From an uncultured Patescibacteria group bacterium (GTDB taxonomy: Bacteria; Patescibacteriota; Microgenomatia; UBA1400; PJMF01): a DNA stretch of 64,000 bases. The DNA lies in the NCBI GenBank assembly GCA_905478415.1, contig CAJQIG010000001.1, positions 150,098-214,097 of the forward strand. The letters are read 5' to 3'. Every line of letters begins with the position of its first letter. Positions within the stretch are counted from its first letter, which is position 1. A program made the translations under genes and the position numbers. The notes below the pieces were generated by a model. The model saw nothing but the letters and a program-made list of their open reading frames with translations, was not told the DNA's origin and ran no database searches. Of this stretch, positions 9,460-43,716 are shown piece by piece.

Positions 9460-9473
9460 ATCTTTCCTTTCGA

Positions 9474-16224: not shown

Positions 16225-16237
16225 GTCAGTGATTCTT

Positions 16238-23728: not shown

Positions 23729-24295
23729 TCATAGTGTCAATTGGGTGACGTTATACCACTGTTGATTTTTAATAAGTTCTCTCTCTTTAGACGTATAGTC
23801 AAACATGCCGTTCACTCGTTGCATTTCTTCTGTAGAAGTGATGAACACGAACAAGTACTGCGATTGGTTTATTTTAGTTAGAATAAAAGAGTCACTTTCT
23901 AAAAGAATTTCACCTGTACTAGCAGCTTTAAATTCATTCAATCTTACCCTTGTATCACCTAGTAAAAGGCCATCCATGCTTGTTAAGTATTCCGATGTAT
24001 AGAAAAGAAGTGGCGTGCTCTCTTCTTCTAAAGAAGTAATTCTAAAAGTGGTGAAAAAATCAGTATTTTTTTCTTCACGAGTAAAAGCACCTGGGCTAAA
24101 ACGTTCACGAAATTGCCAATACACTTCTGGATCTAAACCGTTTGTCTTTAGTTGGGTTTGAAACTCAGTAAAGAGCTTTGTTCTATACCAAGTTGAATAT
24201 TGAGCCTTTACATCTGGGTGCCTCAAAAAAGCAATCGTGAGAATTAAGAACGTAAGTACTATCAAAAAAAGTGTATTTGAAGACTTTTTATTCAT
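23729..24295 (-). CDS. hypothetical membrane-anchored (signal-anchor) protein
   Basis: MNKKSSNTLFLIVLTFLILTIAFL is an N-terminal TM helix. The rest is hydrophilic with no motif. Confidence 0.5.
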   Translation of the reverse strand: MNKKSSNTLFLIVLTFLILTIAFLRHPDVKAQYSTWYRTKLFTEFQTQLKTNGLDPEVYWQFRERFSPGAFTREEKNTDFFTTFRITSLEEESTPLLFYTSEYLTSMDGLLLGDTRVRLNEFKAASTGEILLESDSFILTKINQSQYLFVFITSTEEMQRVNGMFDYTSKERELIKNQQWYNVTQLTL

Positions 24296-24333: not shown

Positions 24334-25998
24334 ATGAAGTTAGATAAAAGACTGATTCTTTGTATGTTAGTGCTCCTGGCACTGATAAGTGTGGCTGATT
24401 TACTGATCCGACCGGGACACCCCGTAACTTTTGATGGCCATATTCATATGACTACCATGAATCAATTCGCACAAAGCCTTGCTGACGGTGAATTTCCTGT
24501 TACCTGGTCAAATAACTTTGCCAACTTTGGACTTCCTCTGCCACTGTTTGCTCATCAACTGCCTGCCTACTTAGGTGCTGTGCTCATTCTACTTGGAGCT
24601 TCTACAGAAACCGCGTACACAGTGCTTGTTACTTTTTCACTTATCGGGGCCACGATTTTATTTTATGTTTTTTTTCGAAAATATGCAAACCAATTAGTCT
24701 CGCTTACTGCAACAGGTATAGCAACATTTTTTCCTTATCGAGCTTTAAACATTTACACTAGAGGAGCTCTTCCAGAAATCATGAGCACGTTATTCTTGCC
24801 AATAGTATTCCTAAGTATTTGGAATCTGCAACATAAGAAGTATCATCTTGCCTTGGGACTGCTATTTATGAGCACACTAGGAATTGCGCTAACGCACCCA
24901 ATGATGCTGCTGATCTTTTTTATACCACTCTCACTCTATTTTTTAAGTGGCCTTGATAAAAGAACTGCCTTAAAACAAGTAGTTATAGCAGCCAGTAGTG
25001 TAGGCTTAGCATTACTGGCTGCAAGCTACTACCTTCTCCCACTTTTTTTAGAAATGAAGTATTTCTATCAAGCAAATATTCAGTCAAGTATTGTAAATGA
25101 TGGTTTTCTATCACTCACTCAACTCTATAGTACACAATGGTTTTACACCTTCACACACCCTGGCCCTAGAGGAAACTTTATTAAACTAGGTCTCTTTGAG
25201 CTCAGTATCTTTATAGCTAGTCTCATAGTACTTTTTTTATCTCAAGTAGATCCAATAAAGAAATATGTTAAAAAGAAAGCACTACCCGAGTTGAAAACTT
25301 GGATTGCCATGTCAGTTATGAGCCTGCTCTTATTACTACCAGTAACCAAACTCCTCTACACTTTGCCGCTCGTAGATAAAATTCAGTATCCATGGAGGTT
25401 TTTAAATGTCTTACAATTCTTATTACCTGGTCTTTTTGTGATGCTAACACAAGCAGTTCCAAAACTTCAAAATAAAATTGTATTAGTAACACTCCTAGCA
25501 CTCGTTCTTTGGCTTAGAGTACCAGAGTTTTATGGAAAAAATTATATTGTTCAACCGGAATCAGATTATGCCTTTACTACAGCCAACTTGCACAGTCTTA
25601 ATATGAACCCTGTCTGGACAGGAAACAGTGAGGAATACCCAACAAAAGAAGTACAAGCTGAAATTATTGAGGGAACTGGAACTTTAGAAATCAGCACAGC
25701 TAAAAATGCCAGTAGAGAGTACCAAATAGACTCTGAAACTGAGATTAGAATGATAGATTACACCTTCTACTTCCCTGGGTGGAACGTTTTTGTAGACGGA
25801 AATCCAGTTGAGATTGAATACCAAGATACTAGGTATCGTGGGCTGATTACCTATCGGGTCCCAGCGGGAAAACATACTTTAAGTGTTATCTATAGTCCAA
25901 CAAGAATACGACTTTTGAGTGGCGTCCTTTCAGGACTTGGCCTCTTTATATTTGGACTTCTCTCTATTGTAACTAAAAAAAAGAAGCTATTGCTCTAA
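24334..25998 (+). CDS. uncharacterised GT-C-like polytopic membrane protein, GQFPVRW family (paralog 2 of 3)
   Basis: N-terminal loop HIHMTTMNQFAQSLADGEFPVTWSNNFANFGLPLPLFAHQLPAYLGAV. C-terminal FYFPGWNVFVDGNPVEIEY...VPAGKHTL plus a terminal TM. Collinear with 18728..20458 and 38878..40620. Confidence 0.6.
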   Translation: MKLDKRLILCMLVLLALISVADLLIRPGHPVTFDGHIHMTTMNQFAQSLADGEFPVTWSNNFANFGLPLPLFAHQLPAYLGAVLILLGASTETAYTVLVTFSLIGATILFYVFFRKYANQLVSLTATGIATFFPYRALNIYTRGALPEIMSTLFLPIVFLSIWNLQHKKYHLALGLLFMSTLGIALTHPMMLLIFFIPLSLYFLSGLDKRTALKQVVIAASSVGLALLAASYYLLPLFLEMKYFYQANIQSSIVNDGFLSLTQLYSTQWFYTFTHPGPRGNFIKLGLFELSIFIASLIVLFLSQVDPIKKYVKKKALPELKTWIAMSVMSLLLLLPVTKLLYTLPLVDKIQYPWRFLNVLQFLLPGLFVMLTQAVPKLQNKIVLVTLLALVLWLRVPEFYGKNYIVQPESDYAFTTANLHSLNMNPVWTGNSEEYPTKEVQAEIIEGTGTLEISTAKNASREYQIDSETEIRMIDYTFYFPGWNVFVDGNPVEIEYQDTRYRGLITYRVPAGKHTLSVIYSPTRIRLLSGVLSGLGLFIFGLLSIVTKKKKLLL

Positions 25999-27924
25999 AG
26001 TAATAGCCGTAATTGATCCATATTTTTCGCCTGTTATTTGCAACATTTTGAGCACTTTATCTGTTAATGAAGCATCTGTACAAATAATTTTCGTCACTCT
26101 ATCTTTTTCAAGTAGTTCTGTAAAATCCGCGACGTTATTTTGATCAATGATTTCAGCTACTCGCTTTGCTTTTGACTGATCACTTCCAACCAATGTTAGC
26201 TGAGAAGGGTTTGCAACATAGACTTCTGCTGGAGTTATAGCTTTCACTAGAGCAGATTTATACAAGGTGCTTCCTTCTGGGCAAATAAGTACATGATCAC
26301 TAGCAGATAATGAGCGTAAGTACTGAACTTCTTCAGCTGGCAGTACATAAGGTGATCTATTTTTATCTACTATTGTTTTTACGCTTGTAGGTATCGCTAA
26401 AACAAAAAGAAGCAGGGAGACAAAAACTACTGTAAGAGTTGATTTGTTCTTAAGTAGTTCCGAAATAAAAAGTGCAACCAAAACGTTGGCAAAAATCAAA
26501 GCATAGTACCAAAATTGAATAGAGTTCCAAACGGTCCCTCTCTGTAGAAACAATAAAGGAAACACAGAACTAAATAAGAAGCCAAAAAAAACATAACTCA
26601 ATACGGGATTGTTTGAAAAAAACTTTTTTCTGATTATAGCTAAGATGGGTAAACCGAGAAAGAAAGATCGAATGCCTAAATTACCAAGATAAAAGACTGC
26701 TAACTTTCTAGCTTCAAGAAAATATAGACGTAGCCAATTCTTCTTCCAAAGGTAGTGATCCTGCAAAAACTTCCATTCTAAATAATTTACTCTGTCTGGA
26801 CTCTCAATCATTGTATTCGTAAACCAGAGCGGTTCATAAAAGAACGAGTTCCCTTTAAAACGGGTAATTAACCATACTAAGGGGACAGAAAGAGTCACAT
26901 AGAAAATACCCGTTAGAATAGTTCTTAGTGACTTTTTTGTAATAAGCTCTACAAGTAAAAAGACTCCATAAATTGCAGTCAAAAGTACCCAAGCATAACT
27001 TTTAAAACCAATACTTGTGGCTGCTAATAAACTAAGTACTATATGGAACTTTAAGGCATCACTTTTTTTCAATTGTATGTTGCTTATTAAGTGAAGAATG
27101 AAAATAAAGATATAAGTAATACCCAACGTGTAAATGACCTGAGGATTAACCATCATTACCAGTGTTTGGCTAACCCAAAAACTAGACTCATGCCAAGCCC
27201 TTCCAGGAATAAATAGTGGAATCAAATAAGCAAAACTTCCCGAAAAAACAGTAAAGGTTGTTAAATAATAAGCTGCCAATACTCCATGCATTCTTTTCCC
27301 TAGCACAAAGGCTGCTGAAGATATAAAGACTCCTAAGAAAACTACGGAATACTGATAGTATAAAGTAAAAAGAGAAATGCGAGAGAAATAGGTGAGGCTT
27401 GCTAAAAAGAGATCATAAAAATAGTGATAACTATTTAATAAAATACTCGGATCAGATGGATGTTTGGGTGGAACTGAGGTAAGTAAATTTTCAACCAAAC
27501 TAATGTGCCAAACACTATCGTGAACTTCTTGCAAACGGAGGGAACCATCTCTAGTTGCACCACTAAAACCAATAGTACTCGCAAGTACTAAAGTACATAC
27601 AAGAAAAAACCCCACAAGCAACTTGTTTTTAAAAACCTGCTTCTTAACAGACTTTAGATACTTAAAAAATTGTTTGAAGTTAGTCAGGCTCAGGGCACCT
27701 GTTAACACTAGTGTCCAGTAGGTATTGGTGCTAATAAATTGCCCTAAAAGAGCCATAACACTGACTACTAGAGAGATACTTATCGCAGTAGCCAGTACTC
27801 CTCTTTCAAGTAGTGAAAGTGTGATTTTTAGATTGAGTTTAGAAAGTAGCCAGAGTCCAAATCCAAAATATGAAATCAAGAAAATGATAAGGGTCATTAG
27901 AAAAGTCATGAAAGTAACTACCAT
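25987..27924 (-). CDS. large polytopic membrane protein (~14 TM) with C-terminal soluble domain, putative GT-C-like
   Basis: 645-aa ORF with extensive hydrophobic helices and a C-terminal ~150 aa hydrophilic domain. No catalytic motif recognised. Convergent overlap (12 nt) with 24334..25998. Confidence 0.45.
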   Translation of the reverse strand: MVVTFMTFLMTLIIFLISYFGFGLWLLSKLNLKITLSLLERGVLATAISISLVVSVMALLGQFISTNTYWTLVLTGALSLTNFKQFFKYLKSVKKQVFKNKLLVGFFLVCTLVLASTIGFSGATRDGSLRLQEVHDSVWHISLVENLLTSVPPKHPSDPSILLNSYHYFYDLFLASLTYFSRISLFTLYYQYSVVFLGVFISSAAFVLGKRMHGVLAAYYLTTFTVFSGSFAYLIPLFIPGRAWHESSFWVSQTLVMMVNPQVIYTLGITYIFIFILHLISNIQLKKSDALKFHIVLSLLAATSIGFKSYAWVLLTAIYGVFLLVELITKKSLRTILTGIFYVTLSVPLVWLITRFKGNSFFYEPLWFTNTMIESPDRVNYLEWKFLQDHYLWKKNWLRLYFLEARKLAVFYLGNLGIRSFFLGLPILAIIRKKFFSNNPVLSYVFFGFLFSSVFPLLFLQRGTVWNSIQFWYYALIFANVLVALFISELLKNKSTLTVVFVSLLLFVLAIPTSVKTIVDKNRSPYVLPAEEVQYLRSLSASDHVLICPEGSTLYKSALVKAITPAEVYVANPSQLTLVGSDQSKAKRVAEIIDQNNVADFTELLEKDRVTKIICTDASLTDKVLKMLQITGEKYGSITAITLEQ

Positions 27925-27925
27925 A

Positions 27926-29548
27926 CTATTCTTCCTTGGTTCTATATATTTGAAACTTCATTTCATGGTCTGAACCATAAATAATATGATCTGCTTTTTC
28001 TAGAGGGAGCTCATCTTGATTACTTCCAACAATCAGAGCATTCTTTCTAGAAAGATCACTTATTGTTATGTCATCATAAAACTCATACTTAATCAATGAA
28101 CCACCTTGATACCAGATGGGGTTCGTTTTTCTTGCAAAAAGAGCATAAATGTATGGTTGCCCATAGTCTGAAGTAAAAATAATTGTATCGACTTCATTAA
28201 CACCCTCTCCATATTCGTACTTCTTGACTATCTCAAAAGCATCTAAATATCCATCTTTAAAGCCCTCAGCTGACTCTGCTGCAAAAGTAGTAAAGTAGTG
28301 ACCTAAAAAAGCAATAAAGAACATACTGTGCACCATTAAGAATAAACCCACAATTGAAGTCACAATAATGTTTTTTTCTCCATGAGAACCTCGAGCACTT
28401 TTATTCATTGCTCTCACTCTTACTTTTTTAAGCACATAGTCTAAACCATAGACGGCTAACATGATGAAGCCTGGTAGTGCCAACAGAGATCTATTACTAT
28501 GAGGTACTTCTGAAGAAACACTAGCCGGTAGAAAACCAATGACAACTATCAGTATAAAAAGTGCCATTTGTTTTCTGTGCATCTTTTCTTTTAGAAACCG
28601 AACCAACCCCGCTAAAATCAGCACTAGCGTTGTTATAAATAAAACTCCTAGGTACCCTGTTCCATGTCGGAGGGTCGTTGTTTCTCCAAAAAGAAGAAAC
28701 TGTGGTGAAAAATGTGCCCCGTAGTTTTTTAAAATTAAAAAAACTTTGTCTTGAAAAGATATATCTTCAAAGACAATGCTGACTCCAGCTCGAGTTAAAC
28801 CTTCTCCATATAATGAATCTTTAATCAAAGGTATGAGTAAAACAACAAATGCCACAGCTAATGTTACTACCTTACGAATATTTTTAATAACAGAAGCAAA
28901 ATAAAATATAAAAAGAGCTACGAGCATTAACGGCACTACTACTTTGGAACTATGGTAGGCATACATCGACCCAGCAAAGCCAAGTATTGTTAGCAAAGAA
29001 GCTGTTTTATCTGCAAAAAGAGTATGTAGTGATTTGAAGAAACCATACAGGCCCCAAATAAATAAGGTTAGCGCGATTCCCGATTCAAAACCAGTCCGAG
29101 AATAGTGGAAATGCCATGGAGATGTAGCAATGAGAAATCCAGCAAATAATGCATAGTGTTTTGCATACTTATGTTTTAAAAATACTTCCTTTGTAAGTAA
29201 CACAGTACCTAATATTCCAAAAATTGAAAAAATAAAAAATGGTAGTCTGACAGCAAAAAGGTTCATTCCAAAAACAAAAGTGAAAAAGCCACTTAGGTAT
29301 ATTGCCAATGGTGCTTTATAGTCTCCAAAGGATCTGAAACTAACAGGAAGCCTTGTTAACCATTCGTCTCTCCTGGTAGTAAAAATTGCAGAGCCATTAT
29401 ATCCAATTGCAGCTTCATCCCAAGTCATACCATGTGGGACAGATCCTAGTTGATAAAAGCGAAAAGCACCCGCTATAAAAAGAATTGCCAGCAATGATAC
29501 AAGATACCAATTTTTTTTAAAAAATGCAGTCATAACTACGACATCCAC
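27926..29548 (-). CDS. PMT/ArnT-like membrane glycosyltransferase (GT39/GT83-type)
   Basis: TM1 followed by GSVPHGMTWDEAAIGYNGSAIFTTRRDEWLTRLPVSFRSFGDYKAP, then SPWHFHYSRTGFES. The same loop architecture as 14515..16224. Confidence 0.75.
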   Translation of the reverse strand: MDVVVMTAFFKKNWYLVSLLAILFIAGAFRFYQLGSVPHGMTWDEAAIGYNGSAIFTTRRDEWLTRLPVSFRSFGDYKAPLAIYLSGFFTFVFGMNLFAVRLPFFIFSIFGILGTVLLTKEVFLKHKYAKHYALFAGFLIATSPWHFHYSRTGFESGIALTLFIWGLYGFFKSLHTLFADKTASLLTILGFAGSMYAYHSSKVVVPLMLVALFIFYFASVIKNIRKVVTLAVAFVVLLIPLIKDSLYGEGLTRAGVSIVFEDISFQDKVFLILKNYGAHFSPQFLLFGETTTLRHGTGYLGVLFITTLVLILAGLVRFLKEKMHRKQMALFILIVVIGFLPASVSSEVPHSNRSLLALPGFIMLAVYGLDYVLKKVRVRAMNKSARGSHGEKNIIVTSIVGLFLMVHSMFFIAFLGHYFTTFAAESAEGFKDGYLDAFEIVKKYEYGEGVNEVDTIIFTSDYGQPYIYALFARKTNPIWYQGGSLIKYEFYDDITISDLSRKNALIVGSNQDELPLEKADHIIYGSDHEMKFQIYRTKEE

Positions 29549-29558
29549 TCACTAAGTC

Positions 29559-31103
29559 TTATAAAGTTCTTGCCTTGTAGACAACTATTTTATCTCCAAA
29601 TGATTTCTCTGAAAGTATTTCACTATATCGTTGTCTACCCCACCAATTAGTAAGTACATCTGACTCTCTTGTATCAGTGATAACGTAATAAATATTTTTG
29701 GGTGTACCTTGTAAGCGAGGGCCATATTTGGCGTCAATTACTCCTAAAATATCTTCTTTTTCCCTAATATAGGAAACCACACCTGGCTCGTAAGCAAATT
29801 CTACAGGAAGTTCTTCACCCTCCAACCCCTGTTTTAAAAATAAATACTGGTACGGAAAATCATAGACATCAGGCATGTAGGTGTACACTGAAAAACGGGT
29901 GTCACCGGTGTCTTCTCTAATATAGTCGACTACTTTTTCTTTGACTGGGTAGTGAACTGTATCAAATTCAAATATAGGTTTTTCTACTTGTAGATAGTAA
30001 TTCAAACGCACTAAACCAGATACAATGAAAATTGACATACAAAGAACTGAAAATGCTTTAGGGGTTTTACTGAATACGGTACCCAAAAGAATAGTAACGA
30101 TTGGAATCATAGGCAAGACATACCAAAGGTTAAAGTGTAAGAAAAAGAATCCAATGATAGGAAAAATAGTAAATAGGCCTCCGATAATGAGTAGCTGTTG
30201 TAGTTCATTGTCAAAACTTTTTTTCTTCCAAATAAAATATCCAGCTAGTATCACTAACATTAGCAAGAGAGCCAGTGAATATTCTCTTAAAACACCAGGA
30301 AGTTCAAACAGTGTTCCACGAAACTCACCAAATGTAATCTGTAAGACAGAAAGAATTTTCTCCACACCAAAAGTATGACTTTCTCCTTCAGAGAAGTATG
30401 CAATGATCGCTCTTGCTTCAACAAAATTATTTTTAATTTCGAACAGCAACTGAGGAATAAAGGGGAGAAAGAAACCAAGCATGCTAGCAAATAATGCTCT
30501 AACATTTGGTCTGAATTTATACAACAATAAGGTGGCTACAATTATGAATGGATAGAAAATGGCAAATGCTGATGAAAAATGAAATCCAAAGGCAGCAGTA
30601 AAAAATAAGCCAAATACAATTTTTTCATTGAGTTTTTTTTGCGCAATCTGCTTTTTAAGTAATATGAGAATAACAATTGAAAGTAAGGTCATTGGGAATG
30701 GATTCCAAGCACTTCTGGATATTGTTAACCAAAAATTTGTGAACCCCATTATGACAGCAGATTCAATGTTGAAGTATCTATACACAAGATACATCTGCAG
30801 TAAAACTAACAAGGTCATCCCAACGGCAAAGAACGAAGGATCAAAGCCGCCAAGTAAAGCAAAAGGAGCCAAGAAATAATACCAAGCGGGACCAAAAAAG
30901 AGTCCTGGGATACTTGTCCAAGGACCAATGAACTTGATTTTTGGAACTACCAACATGTGGAGGACTGCTATGGCATCTTTACCATGATCAAATAGAAAGG
31001 GAACCACTCCACCTTGAATGTACAAAAAACGCACGATTCCAGCCGTTACTAAAAGTAAGATAAACCATAAGTGTTTTGATACTAAACTCTTAATTTTGAA
31101 CAT
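29559..31103 (-). CDS. GT-C-like polytopic membrane protein, G-D-x-G-[RK]-D family (tandem paralog A)
   Basis: TM1 followed by VVPFLFDHGKDAIAVLHMLV...IGPWTSIPGLFFGPAWYY, then SRSAWNPFPM. Collinear with 31152..32708 (FLGDQGRDALIVSRIF...IGPVTSVGNMYLGPLYYY...FSWNPNPAPF). Confidence 0.6.
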   Translation of the reverse strand: MFKIKSLVSKHLWFILLLVTAGIVRFLYIQGGVVPFLFDHGKDAIAVLHMLVVPKIKFIGPWTSIPGLFFGPAWYYFLAPFALLGGFDPSFFAVGMTLLVLLQMYLVYRYFNIESAVIMGFTNFWLTISRSAWNPFPMTLLSIVILILLKKQIAQKKLNEKIVFGLFFTAAFGFHFSSAFAIFYPFIIVATLLLYKFRPNVRALFASMLGFFLPFIPQLLFEIKNNFVEARAIIAYFSEGESHTFGVEKILSVLQITFGEFRGTLFELPGVLREYSLALLLMLVILAGYFIWKKKSFDNELQQLLIIGGLFTIFPIIGFFFLHFNLWYVLPMIPIVTILLGTVFSKTPKAFSVLCMSIFIVSGLVRLNYYLQVEKPIFEFDTVHYPVKEKVVDYIREDTGDTRFSVYTYMPDVYDFPYQYLFLKQGLEGEELPVEFAYEPGVVSYIREKEDILGVIDAKYGPRLQGTPKNIYYVITDTRESDVLTNWWGRQRYSEILSEKSFGDKIVVYKARTL

Positions 31104-31151
31104 CTGCGTATCTTACTTTCTACTCAAAAAATATCTACTTTAATACTAACA

Positions 31152-32708
31152 TTAATTCTGCTCTTTTCGCAGCATGGTAATCTCTGGGCCGTCAGGAATA
31201 GTGTAGACCTCAACCGGTTTTTTATTTGGGAACACAACAATTTCGTAGACGGGAGAATCAACTTCTTTCTCTATCTTTCGTTCCTCATCAATAATAAAAA
31301 GTGTTTCAACTTGACCGAACTCTTCTTCTGAAACTATTTTTTTGTCATCAGATGTTGATAAAAAATACCGATAATTTTGACCATTGAGATCACCAGTGCC
31401 ATTCAATAATACAATATTGTATTTTTCTCCTGGTTTTACTCTATCTTCAATTGTTTGTGCAACACTCTGAATATTAGCAATTGTCCACCCCAATGACTCT
31501 AGCATTTCTCTTCCATAAATAAAGTTGAATTGTATAAAAAAGAAAGAAAAAATACCTACCAAAATTTTTCCAACCATACTTTTTTGATATAAGTAATCTA
31601 AAATAATTGCGAGTGAAAAAAAGGCAGCAGGAAATAGATATGCAATATAATGATGATAAATATTATGTCGATATAAAGCAGTGCCGATAATTCCAGTTAT
31701 TAAAAATGAGAAAACAATAAACTCTCCTGATGCTAATCGACCTTTCTTGAACTTTCTAATTACAATATAAAATAAAACTGCAATCAACGAGAAAGCTATA
31801 AAAGTATCAAAAGATGAGTCATGTTCTCCCACACTTAAATCGGTCAAAATAAGTTTTGCTCGACTTCTAATGTTAATCAGTGTACTTGCAAGAACAGTAG
31901 GCGCTTCATGTTCATTTTTTGCAAAGGTTTCTTCCTTCGTTAAAATATTTATAAAAGCCTTCTTATTTAAACCATCATGTTTGATATCAAATAACACTAG
32001 TGGGGTGAGTGAGAGAAGAAAAATAAGCACTCCTACTGTTGTAGCAGTAAACATTTTTTTCAAAGGCTTTTTTTCTTTTATTTTTGTAAAAAGTTGATAA
32101 AGCCAAACCAACCCAAAAGCTGCGCCCGCAAGCAGTGTCATGTAGTGAAGCTGAATCAAGACTGCAAAACAAACTACCACAGCAATCCAATACTTCACAT
32201 TTTGTAGTGCCTTAAAGGTAAAATACATCAGCAGTAATGAAACAAATGGCGCTGGATTTGGGTTCCAACTGAAGCGAGTGTTTTGAGCCACCACAGCAGA
32301 TAAACCAAAGAGTGTTGCTGCAATAAGAGCTACTCGTTCACTTAAAAATTTCTTTCCCAAATGATACATCAAGAACACCGTCACAACTCCTAACAGTGCA
32401 ATTGCATAAACAGGTCCCATTGGACTTGGATAGGTCAACCAGAGAAAAGGGACCATAAAGTAGTAGTACAACGGCCCTAGATACATATTCCCCACACTGG
32501 TGACGGGACCAATGAAAACAAAATCTAGTTCTCGAAAAATTCGTGACACAATTAATGCATCACGTCCTTGATCTCCCAAAAACTGAACCGTATTTGCAAC
32601 ATTATAAAATCTTAAAAAAGTAGCAATACCTAAAACTATCAAGATAAGTACATGCTTTCTCTCAAACTTTTTCGGTACTAAGGATCTGATGCGTGCTAGT
32701 ACTTTCAT
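31152..32708 (-). CDS. GT-C-like polytopic membrane protein, G-D-x-G-[RK]-D family (tandem paralog B)
   Basis: See paralog A. Shares the loop-1 acidic motif, the xGPxTSxxxxYxGPxYYY segment and the SWNP motif. Confidence 0.6.
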   Translation of the reverse strand: MKVLARIRSLVPKKFERKHVLILIVLGIATFLRFYNVANTVQFLGDQGRDALIVSRIFRELDFVFIGPVTSVGNMYLGPLYYYFMVPFLWLTYPSPMGPVYAIALLGVVTVFLMYHLGKKFLSERVALIAATLFGLSAVVAQNTRFSWNPNPAPFVSLLLMYFTFKALQNVKYWIAVVVCFAVLIQLHYMTLLAGAAFGLVWLYQLFTKIKEKKPLKKMFTATTVGVLIFLLSLTPLVLFDIKHDGLNKKAFINILTKEETFAKNEHEAPTVLASTLINIRSRAKLILTDLSVGEHDSSFDTFIAFSLIAVLFYIVIRKFKKGRLASGEFIVFSFLITGIIGTALYRHNIYHHYIAYLFPAAFFSLAIILDYLYQKSMVGKILVGIFSFFFIQFNFIYGREMLESLGWTIANIQSVAQTIEDRVKPGEKYNIVLLNGTGDLNGQNYRYFLSTSDDKKIVSEEEFGQVETLFIIDEERKIEKEVDSPVYEIVVFPNKKPVEVYTIPDGPEITMLRKEQN

Positions 32709-33562
32709 AGGTGTCTTTTCCGAATGTTAAGTAATTTTAAAAACCAATACGGTTGCCAAAGTAAATAGTTTAGGTATTGACTCAGAGAAGCATGTTTGAC
32801 CGTAAAAGCAGCTCCATTTTTTAAAGAGATTTCTCTAATCTTTTGTGCACCAAACACATTTCGGTGAGTTGATTCATGCTTATGGAACACAATAGCTTTG
32901 GCTTCAAAAAGCACTTTCCAGTCTCTTTTTTTAGCCCGAAATGAAAGGTCTATATCTTCCCAATAAGCAGGATAAAATCGAGTATCAAGCCCACCTAGTA
33001 GCAACCATTTTTTTCGATCATAGAGACCACTACCACCACTCACCCAAGCAGTTTCCCCTGATGTCATTTGGGGTGCTTTTGAGTGAATAAACCGACCACG
33101 TTCAAACCACAATAAATTGCGGCCACTTTCTTCACCGCTCTCATCTTGCTCATACTCCTTACACCCAACAGCGAAACAGCTTGGATCTTCAAAGTAAGGT
33201 AGCAAATACTCTAAAACATCTTCTTTTGGTGAGACATCATTATTTAGTAGGAATATATAGTCACCAGTTGCAACTTGCACACCTAGGTTAACCGTACCTG
33301 CAAACCGCATATTTTTTGAAGTTGAGACAACAACCATCTTCACTCTCTTCTCTTCAGACAGATTACCAGTGTAGAGATGTGTATCACTATCTTTTTTTAA
33401 TGTGAATTTTTCGACCAAGTATCCAACACTCATATCAGTGCTAGAATCATCTGCAATCACAACTTCATCACCTTCACGCAAAGAATCAAGAACTGCAGGC
33501 AAGTGCTTCTTTAGAAGGTGTACTCCATTATAGTTTGGAATAACGACTGAAATTTTTGACAT
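32705..33562 (-). CDS. glycosyltransferase family 2
   Basis: ORF track 32705..33622. Start preferred at MSKISVVIPNYNGVHLL (33562), giving minimal overlap with the upstream gene. VVIADDSSTDMS and LNNDVSP are GT2 signatures. Confidence 0.75.
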   Translation of the reverse strand: MSKISVVIPNYNGVHLLKKHLPAVLDSLREGDEVVIADDSSTDMSVGYLVEKFTLKKDSDTHLYTGNLSEEKRVKMVVVSTSKNMRFAGTVNLGVQVATGDYIFLLNNDVSPKEDVLEYLLPYFEDPSCFAVGCKEYEQDESGEESGRNLLWFERGRFIHSKAPQMTSGETAWVSGGSGLYDRKKWLLLGGLDTRFYPAYWEDIDLSFRAKKRDWKVLFEAKAIVFHKHESTHRNVFGAQKIREISLKNGAAFTVKHASLSQYLNYLLWQPYWFLKLLNIRKRHL

Positions 33563-33563
33563 G

Positions 33564-34640
33564 TTATACCATTTCCTTGACTCTAGCAGTGAAAGCCTCT
33601 TTGCTAAATTTTTTAACTTCAATTCTTGCTTGAACAGCTAGTTTTTTTCGGTACTTTTCATCTTTGAGAATACCAGCTGTGATTGCTAAACACTCTTCTT
33701 TTGATTTCCAGAGTACTTCTTTGCCTAAAGATCCAACTACTTCGACCTGGCCTCCTTTTCCAAGTACAATCGGGACAACTCCATAGGACATAGCTTCTGC
33801 CGTTGTAATTCCAAAGTGTTCAACCTTTTCTGGATGCTTTTCTTCAGAAACTTCATACCCAGTTGCATGCCAATAAATTTGAGCTTTTTTATACAACTGC
33901 TGTAACTGAGCATGTGAAGCATCCCGTATAAATTCTATAGGAAGTCCCTTGGCTTGTTCTAGTAGTTCTTTAAAATAGTCTTCATCTTCAACAGTACCAA
34001 TAAAGACAAGTTTCCAACCTTTAGTTCTTCGGGGATGACGAGTGAGTAACTCCTTAAAAATAGCCACTAAGACATCTTGTCGCTTTGCGTGAAGCTGTCG
34101 GAAGAAACGACCAACGTGCAGAATGATCTTTTCCTTCTTTGCTGGAATTCTGGTTGGAATTACTATCATCGGATAATTAACTACATCAATAGATGTCTTC
34201 CAGTATTTTTCAACTAACTTTTTTGTAAACTCTGAGTTTGTATTTTTTATCTGCCAATTTCTAAGTTTTAGCCGCTCCAACAAACTAGACTTATCAAGAA
34301 TCAGAGGAATTTGAATATGCAAATTATTTTTTTTAGCTAAACTGAAGAAAAGACTTCCATCAGTAACATAGTAAAAGTAGTCAAATTGTCGTGTCCATAA
34401 GGTCTTTTCTAAAAATCCACCACCATAGAATGGAGATTGCACAAATGTTATTGCTGGGTGTAACTTTCTACCAAGAAATGATTCGTATGCCTGTTTATAG
34501 CTCTGCAATTCTTCTGAGGAACTTACCGGCACTGCTATCCAGACTGCATGTTCGCTAGCGAGCTCCTGGGCAACATCAAAAAAGTGCTTTTCACCTCCGC
34601 CAAAGTGTTTGGGTATGTAGGGCGAAAAAAAACCTATTTT
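33564..34640 (-). CDS. glycosyltransferase family 4 (GT-B)
   Basis: ORF track 33564..34658. MKIGFFSPYIPKHFGGGEKH N-terminus. C-terminal EHFGITTAEAMSYGVVPIV is the GT4 motif. Confidence 0.8.
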   Translation of the reverse strand, partial: KIGFFSPYIPKHFGGGEKHFFDVAQELASEHAVWIAVPVSSSEELQSYKQAYESFLGRKLHPAITFVQSPFYGGGFLEKTLWTRQFDYFYYVTDGSLFFSLAKKNNLHIQIPLILDKSSLLERLKLRNWQIKNTNSEFTKKLVEKYWKTSIDVVNYPMIVIPTRIPAKKEKIILHVGRFFRQLHAKRQDVLVAIFKELLTRHPRRTKGWKLVFIGTVEDEDYFKELLEQAKGLPIEFIRDASHAQLQQLYKKAQIYWHATGYEVSEEKHPEKVEHFGITTAEAMSYGVVPIVLGKGGQVEVVGSLGKEVLWKSKEECLAITAGILKDEKYRKKLAVQARIEVKKFSKEAFTARVKEMV

Positions 34641-35470
34641 CATGAGTCTTTTTTCCATTTTTTTTGAATTTCATCTTCAAGATACTTATACCGTTCAGGA
34701 ATACTTGGTTCTTGCTGTAATTCCCAAATTTGCATATATATCCACATGCGATTGATAGCCTGAGTAAGTGACTCAAGTAACCCTACCATTCCATCTTTGT
34801 AGCCTTTATCTCGAATGGCTCGACGCCAAAACTCCATCAAACCTTTTCTGAGTATGGTTTTAAAGGTTACTGGAGCGATATTTGCTTCAATAAATGCCGT
34901 GGCTTCTTTCTGTGTCCACTCAGCACTTTTCTTGAGGTTATCAGTTACACTTCTGTGTGTAAGGTGTACTAATGAAGAATTGAGAAGTTCAGCTTCACCG
35001 TTAAAGTTGGGGCTCTCGTGTATATCTCCTACCCATTCTTTTAACTGAGACACTTTAAAAACTCGAGTCACTACATCTTCTTGCCAACCACCATAGGTAA
35101 CGGGATGTCCAAAAAAGTAGTTCTTTCTCAAGATGGAAAACGCGTTCGCTGCACTTGTTTCTGTATGCACAGCTATCTCTTTTGCTAGTGTAGGAGTAAT
35201 ACGTTCATCTGCATCGAGATAGAGAATCCATTTGGTAGTTACATGCTTTATAGCTTCTTCTCTCACTCGTGCAAACGAATCAGATTTAAAGCTAATAACC
35301 TTTGCTCCTGCTGTCTCAGCTAATTCAGCCGTGTTATCAGTTGAACCATTATCAATAACTAAAACGTGGTCACACCATCTAACAGTCTTCAAAGCCGACA
35401 AAATCATAGCACTCTCATTTCGAGCGATAATTACTGCAGTTATTGATGGAGTTAGTTCAGTTTTTTTCAT
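34640..35470 (-). CDS. glycosyltransferase family 2
   Basis: ITAVIIARNESAMILSAL...VLVIDNGSTDNT...LYLDADE. Confidence 0.8.
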   Translation of the reverse strand: MKKTELTPSITAVIIARNESAMILSALKTVRWCDHVLVIDNGSTDNTAELAETAGAKVISFKSDSFARVREEAIKHVTTKWILYLDADERITPTLAKEIAVHTETSAANAFSILRKNYFFGHPVTYGGWQEDVVTRVFKVSQLKEWVGDIHESPNFNGEAELLNSSLVHLTHRSVTDNLKKSAEWTQKEATAFIEANIAPVTFKTILRKGLMEFWRRAIRDKGYKDGMVGLLESLTQAINRMWIYMQIWELQQEPSIPERYKYLEDEIQKKWKKDS

Positions 35471-36378
35471 ACAACAGGTTGCTTTCCAAAACGACGGAGT
35501 AAAAAATGAAGCACTGCCGTTTGTTCATACTTTGTACCTGCCCATATATACTGAAGCAAAATTCTGCATCCTGCTAGTAAGGCTTTAAAATTACCATGCT
35601 TAATAGTAAACAACAATCGGTTTCGAGCGATATAGTATTGATGTAGTTTTGATCCAGAGCCACCACTTGAACCTGCATTCTTATGCCAAACTATCGAGGC
35701 AGGACAAAAACCAATTTCATACCCAGCTCGACGAGTTCTGACACTTAGATCCACGTCTTCGAAATAGAGGAAAAAACGTTTGTCAAAAGTTCCTACTTTT
35801 TCTAGCACTTCGCGCTTAATTAAAACACAGCAACCAGTTGCAAAATCACTCCCTTGAAATGAATCAAATTGACCACGATCTACTTCGTCAACTCCTCTAT
35901 GAAAGGCCGCAAGGTTTTGCCAATCTATACTGCCGCCAGCATACCAGAGGACAGAACCCAACTCAGAGCGAGCATATTCCTTCTTATGATATTCGTTACC
36001 TTTATAAAAATAAATTTTGGGACAAATGAGTCCATATTCCGGATTTTCTTGACTACATTCGGCGAGTCTCTTTAAAAAGAGAGTGTCAACGACAGTATCG
36101 TTATTTAGAAGTAAAACATAATCGGAGTTATATTTTTCGATGGAGTAAAAAATTCCTAAGTTATTACCTCCCGTAAAACCTAAATTGGCTTCACTCCGTA
36201 CTACTTCAAATCGCTTCTTATCTAGTCCACGAGGAAGTTGGTACTGCTCAATCGAACCATTATCCACGACAATAACTGTGAATTTTATTTCTCTGCCAGA
36301 AACCTTTGCCAATGACTTCAAACACTCATCGGTATCAGATTTGGTATTGTAGTTTACTATAACTAAGCTTATGTGCAT
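35467..36378 (-). CDS. glycosyltransferase family 2 (rhamnosyl/galactofuranosyl-transferase-like subfamily)
   Basis: MHISLVIVNYNTKSDTDECLKSL...VIVVDNGSIEQ...LLLNNDTVV. Confidence 0.8.
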   Translation of the reverse strand: MHISLVIVNYNTKSDTDECLKSLAKVSGREIKFTVIVVDNGSIEQYQLPRGLDKKRFEVVRSEANLGFTGGNNLGIFYSIEKYNSDYVLLLNNDTVVDTLFLKRLAECSQENPEYGLICPKIYFYKGNEYHKKEYARSELGSVLWYAGGSIDWQNLAAFHRGVDEVDRGQFDSFQGSDFATGCCVLIKREVLEKVGTFDKRFFLYFEDVDLSVRTRRAGYEIGFCPASIVWHKNAGSSGGSGSKLHQYYIARNRLLFTIKHGNFKALLAGCRILLQYIWAGTKYEQTAVLHFLLRRFGKQPVV

Positions 36379-36400
36379 AAAATGTCTTACAATCAGTATA

Positions 36401-37303
36401 CTATGAATGGAGCTTTCGCTTTATTTTTGAAAGCATCTTATTAAAACCACTCTTATGTTCTGCTTCGTAATCAGCTATCCAATACGATATATCCTTTTGC
36501 ATGGCTTTAAGGGCCTTGAGTGTTTTCCTCTGGTCTATCGAGGTCTTTTTAAAACCCTGTGACTCCCATTTTTTGAGTACTAACAAAATAGAGTAAAAAC
36601 TTTGAAGAAAACTCAGACTTACTCCATGCATGCCTTCGTCGATTCCCCTAAACTTAAAGAGACGACTCATCAACTCATCTTTAAATGCAGTCACAATAGC
36701 AGCAGGTCCAGGATGATCATCGCGCAAATACTCAGATTGAATATCTGTGTATCGATTCATTCTCTCAACAAATTGTGAGATTGATTGATAATTATGATGA
36801 AGTATAGCCAAAGAATTCTTTTGTTCAATGTATGCTACTTTACCCTGTACTGTTGGAACTGAATGAATCGTATCATCCCAACTAACAACACCTTTTTTAA
36901 ATATCCTCAACTGGTAATCTGGCCACCAGCCTGTTTTCTGCATCTGATGTCCAAAGACTTCATTAAGCCTTGGAATGTAGTATGCATCGGCTGCAGGGTT
37001 TTTGATGATGTCTTGCAATTTCTCTTTGAGCGTTGGTAAGATCTCCTCATCTGCATCCAAAATCAAGATCCACTCTTTTGTGGCTTTGCCAATGGCAAAA
37101 TTACGAGCTGGCTCAACATATCCCACATCTTTATGGTTGAAAACATGGCTCGTGTATTTCTTGGCAATGCTTTTAGTAGCGTCGGTGCTCTGCATATCGA
37201 CGACAATGATCTCATCAGCAAAAGCAACAGACTTCAAGGCTGCCTCTAAAAATTGTTCAGAATTCTTTGTATTGAGAACGACCGAAAGAGATGTGCTTTT
37301 CAT
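36401..37303 (-). CDS. glycosyltransferase family 2
   Basis: LSVVLNTKNSEQFLEAALKSVAFADEIIVVDMQSTDAT...LILDADEE. Confidence 0.8.
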   Translation of the reverse strand: MKSTSLSVVLNTKNSEQFLEAALKSVAFADEIIVVDMQSTDATKSIAKKYTSHVFNHKDVGYVEPARNFAIGKATKEWILILDADEEILPTLKEKLQDIIKNPAADAYYIPRLNEVFGHQMQKTGWWPDYQLRIFKKGVVSWDDTIHSVPTVQGKVAYIEQKNSLAILHHNYQSISQFVERMNRYTDIQSEYLRDDHPGPAAIVTAFKDELMSRLFKFRGIDEGMHGVSLSFLQSFYSILLVLKKWESQGFKKTSIDQRKTLKALKAMQKDISYWIADYEAEHKSGFNKMLSKIKRKLHS

Positions 37304-37306
37304 AGA

Positions 37307-38878
37307 TTACCTTAGGCTTTTCAGCTCTACCATTAGTTTATCACGACCAACCAGTACTAGGGCGAGAATGTAGGAAGAACCAGTGATAACTCCGCCTAGT
37401 AAGAGATGACCAAATCCCAATCCCCAATAGTCTCTTCCTAAGAAGCCCACAAAAGCCATAACTATAGCTGCCACTGCCTGACGCCAAACTGACTCTATAA
37501 AGTTGATCGGTACTATCTTTCGAACATAATACACCGGTAAAGCCGAAGTGAAGGAAATTGCTAATGCAGCCAGAGCTACTCCATTATACCCATAGAAAAC
37601 TATAAGAACTGGAGTCAAAACCCAAGTCAAAATTGTCCAGAAAATCATCAATTTTAAAGTTGTGTTTATCTGTCCAACAGCGTTGAGCGTATTGGTGAGT
37701 GGCGTTGAAACTGCACTCCAACCTATACTGAGAGTAAAGAAAATAAGACTGAATGCCGCAGGTTGCCACTTTTGATACTCTGGGATAATTGTCAAAGCTG
37801 GAATTATAAAGGTCACCATACCGATTAAAATTGGAAAAATGGCAGTGGTAATAAAGAAAAGAGATTTTTCAATTGCTTTTCTCAAGGCAACTTTATGGCC
37901 TTGTAAACGAGAGAATGCCGGGAACGTAACCGACATAACATTTTGAACAGTTAAGCTATAAGGATACATGGACCATTGCTTAGCCCAAGTGATATAACCA
38001 AATTCCTTTGATGGCAAAAATGCTGCCAAGAAAAAGTAAAAGAGCTGGTCTTTAATTCGTGCCAAGAAATCATTAATCTGGAATTTAGCACCGTAACCAA
38101 ACAATCCTTTTAGGGCTGGCACGTGAATCATAATACCAAATGACCAAGGTTGTAGCACTGACATACTGATAGCCCCAACCACTGAACGAAAGATAATAGC
38201 GTAGGCATATGAAATCAATCCATAGCCACGAATAACCATAAAAATAAGTGTGCCTTGAAACACAATTTGTTCTAGGATCTGTGGCAAGACAAGTTTTGAA
38301 AAATCTAACTTTCTTTCCAAAATAACAGATGGGATTGTCTTTAAGGTTGCAAGCGGAAATGAGAGACCCATTGCCAGGAGGATCCAAATACCGGCATTAC
38401 CAGCCTTCATTTGAAATGCTGCAGTAGTTGCTACAAGAATAGTTATACCAAAAATGAGCCAACTCAAAAGTTGTTGTACAGTAAATGCAGTCCGGTACTC
38501 ACGTTTGGTCGGAGTAGTCTTCTTTTGAATCAAAGCTGCTGCTAACCCAATATCTGAAAAGAAAGTTAAGAGCCCAACAACTTGAATCACTAGTCCATAA
38601 ATACCATAATCTTCAGGGGAAAGATAAAAACCTAGTAAAGAGGTTGCAACTAATCCAATGACCTGCAAAAGAACTGTTCTTAAAAAGTATGAAGCGGCCC
38701 CATTGACAGAACGTTTTTTAATATCTTGGATAGCAACTTCCTGTGCATGAGTAATTTTTTCCTCTTGTTCCGGAAACGAGCCAACTGATTTAAGACTCGG
38801 CTTTTGTGGAAATATCGGAGTACCAAGCTTTGAAACAAGATCTCTATATTTAGCTTTTTGAAAAAGGCGAAACAACAT
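37307..38878 (-). CDS. wzx: Wzx-type lipid-linked oligosaccharide flippase (MOP/PST family) with ~55 aa hydrophilic N-terminal extension
   Basis: About 12-14 TM helices. N-terminal region ASYFLRTVLLQVIGLVATSLLGFYLSPEDYGIYGLVIQVVGLLTFFSDIGLAAALIQKK matches the conserved Wzx/PST N-terminal core. Start codon shares one base with the upstream stop. Confidence 0.75.
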   Translation of the reverse strand: MLFRLFQKAKYRDLVSKLGTPIFPQKPSLKSVGSFPEQEEKITHAQEVAIQDIKKRSVNGAASYFLRTVLLQVIGLVATSLLGFYLSPEDYGIYGLVIQVVGLLTFFSDIGLAAALIQKKTTPTKREYRTAFTVQQLLSWLIFGITILVATTAAFQMKAGNAGIWILLAMGLSFPLATLKTIPSVILERKLDFSKLVLPQILEQIVFQGTLIFMVIRGYGLISYAYAIIFRSVVGAISMSVLQPWSFGIMIHVPALKGLFGYGAKFQINDFLARIKDQLFYFFLAAFLPSKEFGYITWAKQWSMYPYSLTVQNVMSVTFPAFSRLQGHKVALRKAIEKSLFFITTAIFPILIGMVTFIIPALTIIPEYQKWQPAAFSLIFFTLSIGWSAVSTPLTNTLNAVGQINTTLKLMIFWTILTWVLTPVLIVFYGYNGVALAALAISFTSALPVYYVRKIVPINFIESVWRQAVAAIVMAFVGFLGRDYWGLGFGHLLLGGVITGSSYILALVLVGRDKLMVELKSLR

Positions 38879-43106: not shown

Positions 43107-43119
43107 AGAGAAGTTGCGT

Positions 43120-43716
43120 ATGTACACACCCAAAGAATCACTGCAGGTTGGAGAAAGTATCTATAGTTCTAAGCTTGAGGGGTTGTTTTTCCTTGAAAGT
43201 AAGAAGTTTGATGATGAGCGTGGTTACTATGCCGAACTGGCTCGTATTCCAGAGCTAGACGCACTCAGAGGTGTTGAGTTTTGTACAAAACAAGTCAATA
43301 TCGCTCGATCTAGTCAAAATGTTGCTCGTGGTATTCACTCAGAAAATTGGAATAAGTTAGTGACAGTTACCAATGGCGTAGCTTTTTGTGCTCTAGTGGA
43401 TTTAAGACCTACTTCTAAAACATTTGGAGTATTTGAAACAATCCTATTAGGAGTTGGAAAGGATGCTCTCCATGGGAGCGTTTTCATTCCCAGTGGAATT
43501 GGTAATTCTCTCTGTGTAGTTGAAGGTCCTGTTGACTATCTCTACTATGTAGACAAACTGTACAAAGATCGTGATCCTAGTGGAGACAAAGCACTGTCAC
43601 TGTTTGATCCTGACCTCGCTATCTCTTGGCCAATAGCGAAAGAAGAGATGATACTTTCACAAAGAGATCAAAACACTGTCACTTTAAAAGAATTATTTCC
43701 GGAAAAATATGCGTAA
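43120..43716 (+). CDS. rfbC: dTDP-4-dehydrorhamnose 3,5-epimerase (RmlC-like cupin)
   Basis: ORF track 43027..43716 overlaps rmlB. The ATG at 43120 sits just after the rmlB stop. ...QVNIARSSQNVARGIHSE...VDLRPTSKTFG...FIPSGIGNSLCVVEGPVDYLYY...DPDLAISWP fit the RmlC fold motifs. Confidence 0.75.
   Translation: MYTPKESLQVGESIYSSKLEGLFFLESKKFDDERGYYAELARIPELDALRGVEFCTKQVNIARSSQNVARGIHSENWNKLVTVTNGVAFCALVDLRPTSKTFGVFETILLGVGKDALHGSVFIPSGIGNSLCVVEGPVDYLYYVDKLYKDRDPSGDKALSLFDPDLAISWPIAKEEMILSQRDQNTVTLKELFPEKYA

Follow-up and report, generated by a model that had tools for sequence, protein, structure and literature searches.

Neighbouring GT-C-fold membrane proteins of a Patescibacteria bacterium are ancient paralogs with a probable role in cell-envelope glycosylation

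Two adjacent genes of an uncultured Patescibacteria group bacterium, here called A and B, probably encode ancient GT-C-A paralogs that move a polyprenyl-phosphate-linked sugar onto a cell-envelope acceptor on the extracytoplasmic side of the membrane. The genes lie in a 64,000-nucleotide stretch of contig CAJQIG010000001.1 (assembly GCA_905478415.1), which we call the window and whose positions are used throughout. An earlier note, made from the letters of this DNA, had described neighbouring open reading frames of 514 and 518 aa, and both are present as described, on the minus strand. The genes considered below are the following:

29559-31103, minus strand: gene A, 514 aa, predicted GT-C-fold membrane glycosyltransferase, currently unannotated
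31152-32708, minus strand: gene B, 518 aa, existing annotation GT39-family
22223-23704, minus strand: gene C, 493 aa, third paralog of the A/B clade (BLASTP E 1e-16 to B and 6e-9 to A)

Homology and distribution of A, B and C

The peptides quoted in the earlier note, FLFDHGKDAIAVLHML and FLGDQGRDALIVSRIF, are found in the A and B proteins, and its description of the two as collinear paralogs holds. The pairwise alignment check gave 27% identity over 279 aa (BLASTP, E 7e-18), and comparison of the two family profiles with hhalign gave a probability of 99.9% (E 1.8e-31) over 424 aligned columns. The similarity between A and B is far above chance. The IGP...GP.YY and WNP.P segments are common to both proteins, as had been noticed, and are invariant inside each family.

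Gene C is located 6 kb away, and the A-B pair is in fact a trio, for which a three-way alignment was made. A, B and C each belong to a separate orthologous family that is conserved in Pace-, Woese-, Beckwith-, Levy-, Davies- and Chisholmbacteria; members of one family share 35-65% identity, and members of different families about 21-27%. In this search, members of the clade were found only in the superphylum Microgenomates of the Patescibacteria. B homologs are labelled 'glycosyltransferase family 39 protein' in NCBI and JGI, and all family A and C members are currently labelled 'hypothetical'; the search with family C returned only 'hypothetical' proteins without Pfam domains. A literature search on GT-C enzymes in Patescibacteria/CPR gave nothing specific.

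Fold, first-loop motif and family assignment

The view that A and B are GT-C-like membrane proteins is borne out by AF2 models (pLDDT 94.4 and 91.6 for A and B, respectively) and by a Foldseek match to ArnT with a TM-score of 0.57 and a probability of 1.00. Each protein contains 11 modelled transmembrane (TM) helices and starts on the inside; its first outside loop bears two juxtamembrane helices, and its C-terminal alpha/beta domain (about residues 380-514 in A) is extracytoplasmic. In the predicted secondary structure, the juxtamembrane helices between TM1 and TM2 span residues 38-52 and 73-84 in A and 45-59 and 80-92 in B, and TM3 is split (113-121 and 123-130 in A; 124-136 and 138-143 in B). 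The hallmarks of GT-C-A enzymes are a pair of helices that separates TM1 from TM2, a TM3 that is kinked or split, and an Asp at the tip of the first juxtamembrane helix (PMC12041299), and the proposed catalytic Asp is placed after TM1 (PMC11127046). A and B show a TM count within the range of 7-13 together with a structural match, the N-terminal module, and an invariant outside Asp. The family-wide positive-inside count is 15.0 Lys and Arg residues for six short segments on the cytoplasmic side and 0.4 for three short loops on the outside, a bias that places the acidic motif, the WNP segment, H175/H188 and the C-terminal domain outside. Sequence searches against all PDB chains, with single proteins and with family profiles, returned nothing meaningful and no ArnT chain. 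Families A and C can be assigned confidently to the GT-C enzymes.

The acidic motif of the first loop is found at equivalent positions in the three proteins:

30975-30989, minus strand: motif D39-H-G-K-D43 of A, where the first juxtamembrane helix begins (N-terminal tip of AF2 helix 38-52), within extracytoplasmic loop 1
32559-32573, minus strand: motif D46-Q-G-R-D50 of B, at a position equivalent to the A motif (AF2 helix 45-59)
23552-23566, minus strand: motif D47-E-S-S-D51 of C, from the motif census

A G-D-x-G-[RK]-D motif had been proposed for both A and B. It describes B, which has GDQGRD, but not A, which has FDHGKD with no Gly before the first Asp. GDQGRD occurs in 118/120 B homologs and FDHGKD in 102/120 A homologs, and the wider clade motif D-x-[GAS]-[KR]-D is present in 102 of the 106 full-length representatives. 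D39 and D43 of A are invariant across 58 family-A members, as are G45, D46, Q47, G48, R49 and D50 of B across 59 family-B members. The N-terminal loop of A or B contains no DE, the residues at this site being D-H in A and D-Q in B. The first motif Asp of B lines up with the DE-dyad Asp of the window's 544-aa PMT-like gene in a weak alignment (hhalign E 8e-4, probability 24%), and comparison of family B with the 540-aa PMT_2-like gene of the window was not significant. Given such weak profile alignments, the marginal PMT_2 score of B and the D-E that family C carries at the same site, D-x-[GAS]-[KR]-D is best read as a probable variant of the classical DE catalytic loop and not as a different loop. 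The putative equivalence of the motif Asp to known catalytic Asp residues is based on its position in a predicted model and on these weak alignments.

The proposal that A and B form a second, distinct GT-C lineage is correct in that they are separate from the PMT_2/DE group, the YfhO/PTPS_related group and the GT87-like gene of the window, but they do not stand wholly apart from the PMT_2 clan, with B at the PMT_2 threshold and family C retaining D-E. Against the PMT_2 gathering threshold of 26.1 bits (PF13231), B scores a marginal 26.9 bits and C 18.3 bits, and A has no match; sub-threshold PMT_2 matches were found in just 4/58 family-A members. The families suggested earlier, DUF2079 and DUF2723, gave no Pfam match, and DUF6057 was matched in the Pfam search at E 0.27 at best. 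The WWD/WWDxG motif of STT3/PglB/AglB (GT66) is absent from A, B and C, and the NCBIfam archaeo_STT3 model, whose cut-off is 450, gives 12 bits. Protein O-mannosyltransferases (GT39 proper) are marked by a DE dyad in loop 1 and by MIR domains in the large luminal loop; A and B lack the dyad, and Pfam found no MIR domain in them, whereas family C has D-E.

The surrounding locus and proposed function

A and B are embedded in a co-directional operon with a gene content that suggests polysaccharide assembly:

25987-40620, minus strand: 12-gene block with A and B (Pfam and ORF calls), intergenic gaps of -59 to +48 nt
37307-38878, minus strand: Wzx flippase
32705-33622, minus strand: GT2 gene preceding B
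40714-41838, plus strand: LytR-CpsA-Psr (LCP) gene (PF03816, 107 bits), divergent from the operon
6798-7529 and 7842-8534, minus strand: two small soluble GT2 genes, candidate polyprenyl-phosphate-sugar synthases and a possible source of lipid-linked donor

The order of the block is a 580-aa polytopic protein, the Wzx flippase, three GT2 genes, a GT4 gene, the GT2 gene at 32705-33622, B, A, a 540-aa PMT_2-like protein and a 645-aa polytopic protein. Scans for operon promoters and terminators gave no excess over shuffles. The LCP gene adjoining the operon is kept in related genomes, and rmlBCD also lies near the operon of A. LCP-family enzymes of characterised bacteria attach glycopolymers to peptidoglycan. 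The two small GT2 genes are 22 kb away, and in NCBIfam they come closest to AglJ, dolichyl-phosphate hexose transferase, PpgS and ArnC, with every score below the curated cut-off. In total, ~28 kb of this tiny CPR genome holds at least 12 GT-C-like membrane proteins along with Wzx, LCP and many GT2/GT4 genes, which suggests a complex and so far unexplored glycan on the cell surface.

Building on the homology, fold, topology, conservation and position of the motif, and gene contexts, we propose the following for catalysis, donor type and acceptor. The active site of A and B would be on the outer face of the membrane. There, the invariant Asp that opens D-x-[GAS]-[KR]-D and caps the first juxtamembrane helix may act as the catalytic acid/base, and the second Asp, one helical turn on, together with the Lys/Arg, may hold the donor phosphate/sugar or a metal ion. 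The donor would be a polyprenyl-phosphate-linked sugar already flipped across the membrane, a suggestion drawn from gene context, namely the GT2::GtrA fusion that adjoins B orthologs in other genomes. The acceptor would most likely be the glycopolymer that the Wzx/GT2/GT4 operon makes and that the neighbouring LCP enzyme would link to the wall, although it could be a protein or a lipid instead of a wall polymer.

The close association of A with Wzx raises an alternative. A Wzx ortholog is located within 10 kb upstream of A in 13/25 species loci and immediately upstream in 4. In several genomes (L016, L024 and L013), the stop codon of Wzx overlaps the start codon of A, which comes directly after it. 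A, and possibly B, may then be an en-bloc transferase or polymerase (OST- or Wzy-like) that acts on a Wzx-flipped polyprenyl-diphosphate-linked oligosaccharide, rather than a decorator that adds single sugars; the presence of Wzx and LCP in a locus where Pfam recognises no Wzy-type polymerase fits this possibility. We nonetheless consider it unlikely, since WWDxG is lacking in A, B and C, family B goes together with GT2::GtrA donor synthases of the monosaccharide type in other genomes, and Wzx-type flippases such as GacK can serve polyprenyl-monophosphate sugars too (PMC8035078).

Less likely still is the protein O-glycosyltransferase activity that the 'GT39 family' label suggests, by which A and B would decorate secreted or surface proteins instead of a glycopolymer. 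B does exceed the Pfam PMT_2 threshold, and the best NCBIfam match of its GT2::GtrA partner is PgfS, at a score below cut-off. PgfS belongs to a streptococcal protein-glycosylation system. The PMT_2 score is, however, marginal for B and absent for A, neither protein has the DE dyad or a MIR domain in Pfam, and the operon setting is that of polysaccharide assembly with an LCP gene. The PMT_2 model is also broad and extends to transferases that act on glycolipids and teichoic acids (PMC8035078, Table 2).

That one or both proteins are inactive GT-C-like scaffolds, as PIG-U or GAB1, seems very improbable: the helix-tip Asp and the outward polar residues (WNP, His, D-x3-D) are invariant over hundreds of sequences in both families, which is the pattern expected of an active site.

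The gene B cassette and the origin of the A-B pair

We favour the reading of A and B as ancient paralogs, with A a fixed member of a Wzx/GT2/GT4-type operon and B normally housed in a separate cassette and apparently relocated beside A in this lineage. B orthologs are located elsewhere in 5/5 other genomes examined (on one contig of GCA_900089805.1, B is 44 kb from A), and in all five B directly follows a GT2::GtrA_DPMS_TM fusion, so that synthase, flippase and GT-C genes are adjacent there. This cassette consists of a nucleotide-sugar dehydrogenase, an SDR enzyme, a GDP-mannose 4,6-dehydratase, the GT2::GtrA fusion and B. The best NCBIfam matches of the fusion are the polyprenyl-phosphate sugar synthases PgfS, AglJ, PpgS and ArnC, all below cut-off. 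One SDR scores above the NCBIfam cut-off as GDP-mannose 4,6-dehydratase, and the dehydrogenase passes a subfamily threshold only. An interpretation of the cassette as arn-like synthesis of a pentose/uronate donor was dropped on account of this GDP-mannose 4,6-dehydratase match. In the window, the operon contains Wzx and several GT2 genes, and no GT2::GtrA fusion adjoins B or occurs elsewhere in the operon.

A tandem duplication with divergence, as proposed earlier, would suit two adjoining, same-strand, collinear genes of similar length, but a recent local duplication is hardly credible: A and B share 27% identity against 55-65% between each of them and its orthologs in other species, the syntenic operon of the nearest relatives (L006, L007 and L041) is missing B, B is the immediate upstream neighbour of A in 0/25 species loci whose upstream sequence reaches 8 kb or more, only four of the full set of species loci have a clear family-B gene at 10 kb or less from A, and B orthologs sit in another conserved cassette. 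B has no informative repeats on its flanks, and GC and GC3 show no anomaly; a recent mobile insertion is therefore not indicated. The adjacency of A and B is a lineage-specific change of gene order between ancient paralogs.

A bolder interpretation, which we regard as doubtful, takes D-[EQH..]-x-x-D at the tip of the first juxtamembrane helix as the defining mark of families A, B and C, which would make up a GT-C-A clade restricted to Microgenomates, unconnected by sequence to any characterised enzyme, and would found one or more new CAZy families. In this interpretation A would be the conserved extracytoplasmic transferase, perhaps an en-bloc or polymerising enzyme that works with the adjacent Wzx, and would build an LCP-anchored wall glycopolymer in uncultivated ultra-small bacteria of unexplored envelope chemistry. 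The A-B pair is real but fairly ordinary, its members being distant relatives within the well-known GT-C fold. The usable results are the reassignment of A and C from 'hypothetical' to GT-C, a catalytic-loop signature for the clade, and the placement of B in a synthase/flippase/transferase cassette. These provide handles for annotation and heterologous reconstitution, and reveal no new mechanism.

Comparison with known glycosyltransferases

ALG12 and ALG9 (GT22, Dol-P-Man mannosyltransferases) share 10-12% sequence identity with A and B and give no sequence-level match. They are eukaryotic ER enzymes and do not have the C-terminal alpha/beta domain found in A and B.

The PMT_2 proteins and eukaryotic Pmt1/2/4 resemble the clade in that B is just above threshold, its first motif Asp is weakly aligned with the D of DE in the PMT-like gene of the window, and family C has D-E. 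They differ in the DE dyad and the MIR domain, neither of which is present in A and B, and A and C are sub-threshold.

ArnT (GT83), the undecaprenyl-phosphate-L-Ara4N:lipid A transferase (5F15/5EZM), shares with A and B the GT-C-A fold with a C-terminal extracytoplasmic alpha/beta domain. It also has an acidic residue right after TM1 (WQPDETRYAEI in Escherichia coli, compared with FLGDQGRDALI in B), and the arn operon follows a logic similar to that of the B cassette in other genomes, with sugar-nucleotide-modifying enzymes and a GT2 lipid-sugar synthase. Alignment of both family profiles to E. coli ArnT with hhalign detected no similarity (probability 0.3%), which leaves the visual resemblance of DETRYAEI and DQGRDALI as only a lead. 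The motif of ArnT is D-E-x-R-Y and that of the clade D-x-G-[KR]-D, and ArnT has 13 TM helices, against the 11 modelled in A and B. The enzymes of the B cassette, one of them GDP-mannose 4,6-dehydratase, are not arn homologs. ArnT acts on lipid A, whereas the host here is presumably monoderm and without lipid A.

The multi-component systems (Gtr*, GtlB, CsdB/D/F, GacL and the GT136 ORF12) likewise combine a GT2 synthase, a flippase (GtrA domain or Wzx) and a GT-C enzyme side by side, as in the loci of B orthologs. In their GT-C enzymes, TM1 is followed by a small outside domain that carries a conserved Asp, as in A and B (PMC11127046; PMC8035078). The present locus differs in its at least dozen GT-C-like genes and in the separation of B from its usual GT2::GtrA partner; the likeness is one of gene layout and of the domain after TM1, and it extends to the setting in a cell-wall polysaccharide locus with rml and LCP genes.

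Three paralogous membrane proteins and their loop-1 motif

The two neighbouring ORFs described in an earlier note, and the peptides quoted from them, were both found in the window at genes A and B. A third paralog, gene C, was identified by all-against-all BLAST of the window ORFs.

Gene A: 29559-31103, minus strand, 514-aa ORF
Gene B: 31152-32708, minus strand, 518-aa ORF adjoining A
Gene C: 22223-23704, 493 aa, third paralog

The paralogy of A and B proposed in that note is borne out as clear homology, both by BLASTP (27% identity across 279 residues, E 7e-18) and by profile-profile alignment. The family profiles A2 (58 sequences, family A) and A3 (59 sequences, family B) align in hhalign with a probability of 99.9% (E 1.8e-31) over 424 columns, which span the entire membrane part and the beginning of the C-terminal domain. 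Gene C is related to B with an E of 1e-16 and to A with an E of 6e-9. We note that a 117-aa ORF lies antisense within gene A (30025-30378, plus strand), probably no more than a chance product of AT-rich sequence.

On Pfam PMT_2, B reaches 26.9 bits against a gathering score of 26.1, and its homologs in public sources carry the name "glycosyltransferase family 39 protein" or "ArnT-like". C falls below the Pfam threshold, A has no match in Pfam or NCBIfam, and every A and C homolog is labelled "hypothetical". Our literature search found no paper on this clade. The clade is nevertheless sizeable, as 1.84 billion representative proteins searched by profile yielded 4746 relatives at E <=1e-3 and 493 at E <=1e-30. 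Nearly all homologs of the three genes are from Microgenomates-group Patescibacteria (Pace-, Woese-, Beckwith-, Levy-, Davies-, and Chisholmbacteria). Many records with these CPR-type loci (L007-L053 in our gene-order comparison) go under the titles "uncultured Pseudomonadales", "TM6", "Limisphaerales", or "Methylococcaceae"; homologs and gene content indicate Patescibacteria, which makes mislabelling or contaminated bins the probable explanation.

The loop motif G-D-x-G-[RK]-D, attributed to both proteins, holds for B, which reads G-D-Q-G-R-D (118/120 homologs), but not for A, which reads F-D-H-G-K-D (102/120 homologs). The motif is D-E-S-S-D in C and D-x-[GAS]-[KR]-D in 102 of the 106 full-length representatives of the wider clade. 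Both Asp residues, IGP/GP, YY, PF, WNP, and one His are invariant in all three families. The motif had also been regarded as distinct from DE, the acidic dyad of PMT-like GT-C proteins. A and B indeed lack this dyad, but we read D-x-x-x-D as the customary acidic motif of GT-C loop 1 in an elaborated form rather than as an unrelated site. This sequence-based reading follows from a weak profile alignment (E 8e-4, probability 24%), in which the first Asp of GDQGRD aligns with the D of "ADE" in the PMT-like protein at 17134-18768, and from family C, which keeps D-E at the first-Asp position and has the second Asp four residues on.

Predicted fold and membrane topology

No match to PDB chains was obtained with A or B, either as single sequences or as family profiles. 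Confident AlphaFold2 models were built from the family alignments, with a pLDDT of 94.4 and a pTM of 0.93 for A, and 91.6 and 0.92 for B. The best full-length TM-score in Foldseek was to ArnT (0.57), in agreement with a Z-scored structure comparison, in which Z was <=8 beyond the leading matches. When compared with the listed features of the GT-C-A subclass (PMC12041299), both models contain two juxtamembrane helices between TM1 and TM2 and a split TM3. In each, the first juxtamembrane helix carries the invariant Asp (D39 in A, D46 in B) at its tip. Mean K+R in family A is 15.0 in six short predicted cytoplasmic segments versus 0.4 in three short outside loops, and the predicted topology is N-in and C-out with 11 TM helices. 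This topology puts the motif, WNP, and the conserved His on the outer side, together with the C-terminal alpha/beta domain.

Gene order and the origin of the A/B pair

The earlier note took A and B for a tandem duplication, which our comparisons speak clearly against. Ortholog identity within a family is 35-72% over several candidate phyla, versus 21-27% between families A, B, and C. When 49 species-level loci with an A relative were searched with family HMMs, a clear family-B gene was found within 10 kb of A in only four, and never as its immediate neighbour. The three closest species (L006, L007, and L041; A ~55% identical) share the gene order of the window minus B: LCP (LytR-CpsA-Psr), 580-aa protein, Wzx flippase, GT2, GT2, GT2, GT4, GT2, A, and 540-aa protein. 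The position between A and the operon's last GT2 (31104-32708 in the window) varies in content. Across these loci and L009, L042, L049, and L059, it holds nothing, a 742-aa unknown, a ~370-400-aa unknown, or a 511-aa opposite-strand gene, and in the window it holds B. In GCA_900089805.1, A and B are on one contig, 44 kb apart. The window's copy of B is not flanked by repeats and is unremarkable in composition.

B orthologs (47-63% identity) were found in a conserved cassette in all five other genomes examined.

B cassette: L060:3571-13242, likewise in L056, L057, and L058, Microgenomates genomes

The cassette runs nucleotide-sugar dehydrogenase, SDR, GDP-mannose 4,6-dehydratase (TIGR01472, 436 bits, cut-off 415), GT2::GtrA fusion, B, small GT2, and MptA/B-family GT-C, with a PMT-like gene in most. 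It is a candidate multi-component glycosylation pathway and a tidy target for experiments. In the window, it is not present at the corresponding place beside trmD.

The predicted glycosylation locus and its relation to known families

The window matches, with full identity, a portion of a 584-kb ENA metagenome scaffold. About 13 polytopic GT-C-like genes (490-650 aa) lie within 28 kb (12603-40620), in at least four sequence groups: PMT_2/DE, YfhO/PTPS_related, A/B/C, and a GT87-like gene with other unassigned proteins. For an apparently ~0.6 Mb genome, this is an unusually heavy outlay on extracytoplasmic glycosylation. The region also holds Wzx together with several GT2 and GT4 genes, and LCP, rmlBCD, and further sugar-nucleotide genes are found just beyond it.

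Block holding A and B: 25987-40620, 12 co-directional genes, gaps -59 to +48 nt

Promoter-like and terminator-like sites in this block are no commoner than in shuffled sequence. At its two ends are polytopic proteins of 645 aa (25987-27924, minus) and 580 aa (38878-40620, minus), with conserved synteny and no significant Pfam match (very weak YfhO for the latter); both are candidates for the missing polymerase or further GT-C enzymes. A conserved 188-aa single-TM protein (23729-24295, minus) invariably separates the PTPS_related-like gene from the GT-C gene that follows, and a conserved 302-aa protein with ~7 TM helices (16229-17137, plus) has orthologs directly after A in L042 and L049. Neither has a Pfam match, and each may serve as an accessory or flippase-like component. 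The 405-aa protein at 9474-10691 (minus; ~9 TM helices, sub-threshold PMT_2 match), adjoining GT4 and GT2 genes and conserved in L042, is a further small GT-C-like gene product. Genes for rmlB (above the NCBIfam cut-off), rmlC-like, and rmlD-like proteins (42072-44587, plus) adjoin LCP; GDP-fucose-synthase-like and GalE-like genes (417-1448 and 8518-9486, both minus) lie at the left window end. Together, their annotations suggest a glycan with rhamnose or another 6-deoxyhexose.

With characterised GT-C enzymes and multi-component transmembrane glycosylation systems as models (PMC8035078, PMC11127046), A and B most likely act as extracytoplasmic sugar transferases. Each would take a sugar from a polyprenyl-phosphate-linked donor at the outer membrane face and pass it to a cell-envelope acceptor, with the helix-tip Asp (D39 or D46) as the putative catalytic residue. 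For B, the GT2::GtrA fusion of other genomes is an evident partner for donor synthesis and flipping. Two small GT2 proteins of the window find their best matches among polyprenyl-phosphate sugar synthases, with scores under the curated cut-offs. A is conserved alongside Wzx, cytoplasmic GT2/GT4 genes, other GT-C genes, and LCP, company that points to a role in building or decorating a glycopolymer linked to the wall. Alternatively, A and B may have an en-bloc or polymerase role together with Wzx, may glycosylate proteins at O-linked sites, or may be inactive scaffolds. We favour extracytoplasmic sugar transfer. The recognition of A and B as GT-C-like proteins helps in the annotation of CPR envelopes and would come as no surprise to a specialist.

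Among known families, A and B do not group with GT83 (ArnT), lack the WWDxG motif of GT66, and lack the DE dyad and MIR domains of GT39 proper; B alone reaches PMT_2, marginally. Authentic E. coli ArnT reads WQPDETRYAEI at the place corresponding to the A/B motif, a likeness we treat as a mere lead because its comparison with the A and B profiles was not significant. Judged from the models, A and B appear to be ordinary GT-C-A enzymes at the fold level, and by sequence they seem to stand outside every characterised family.
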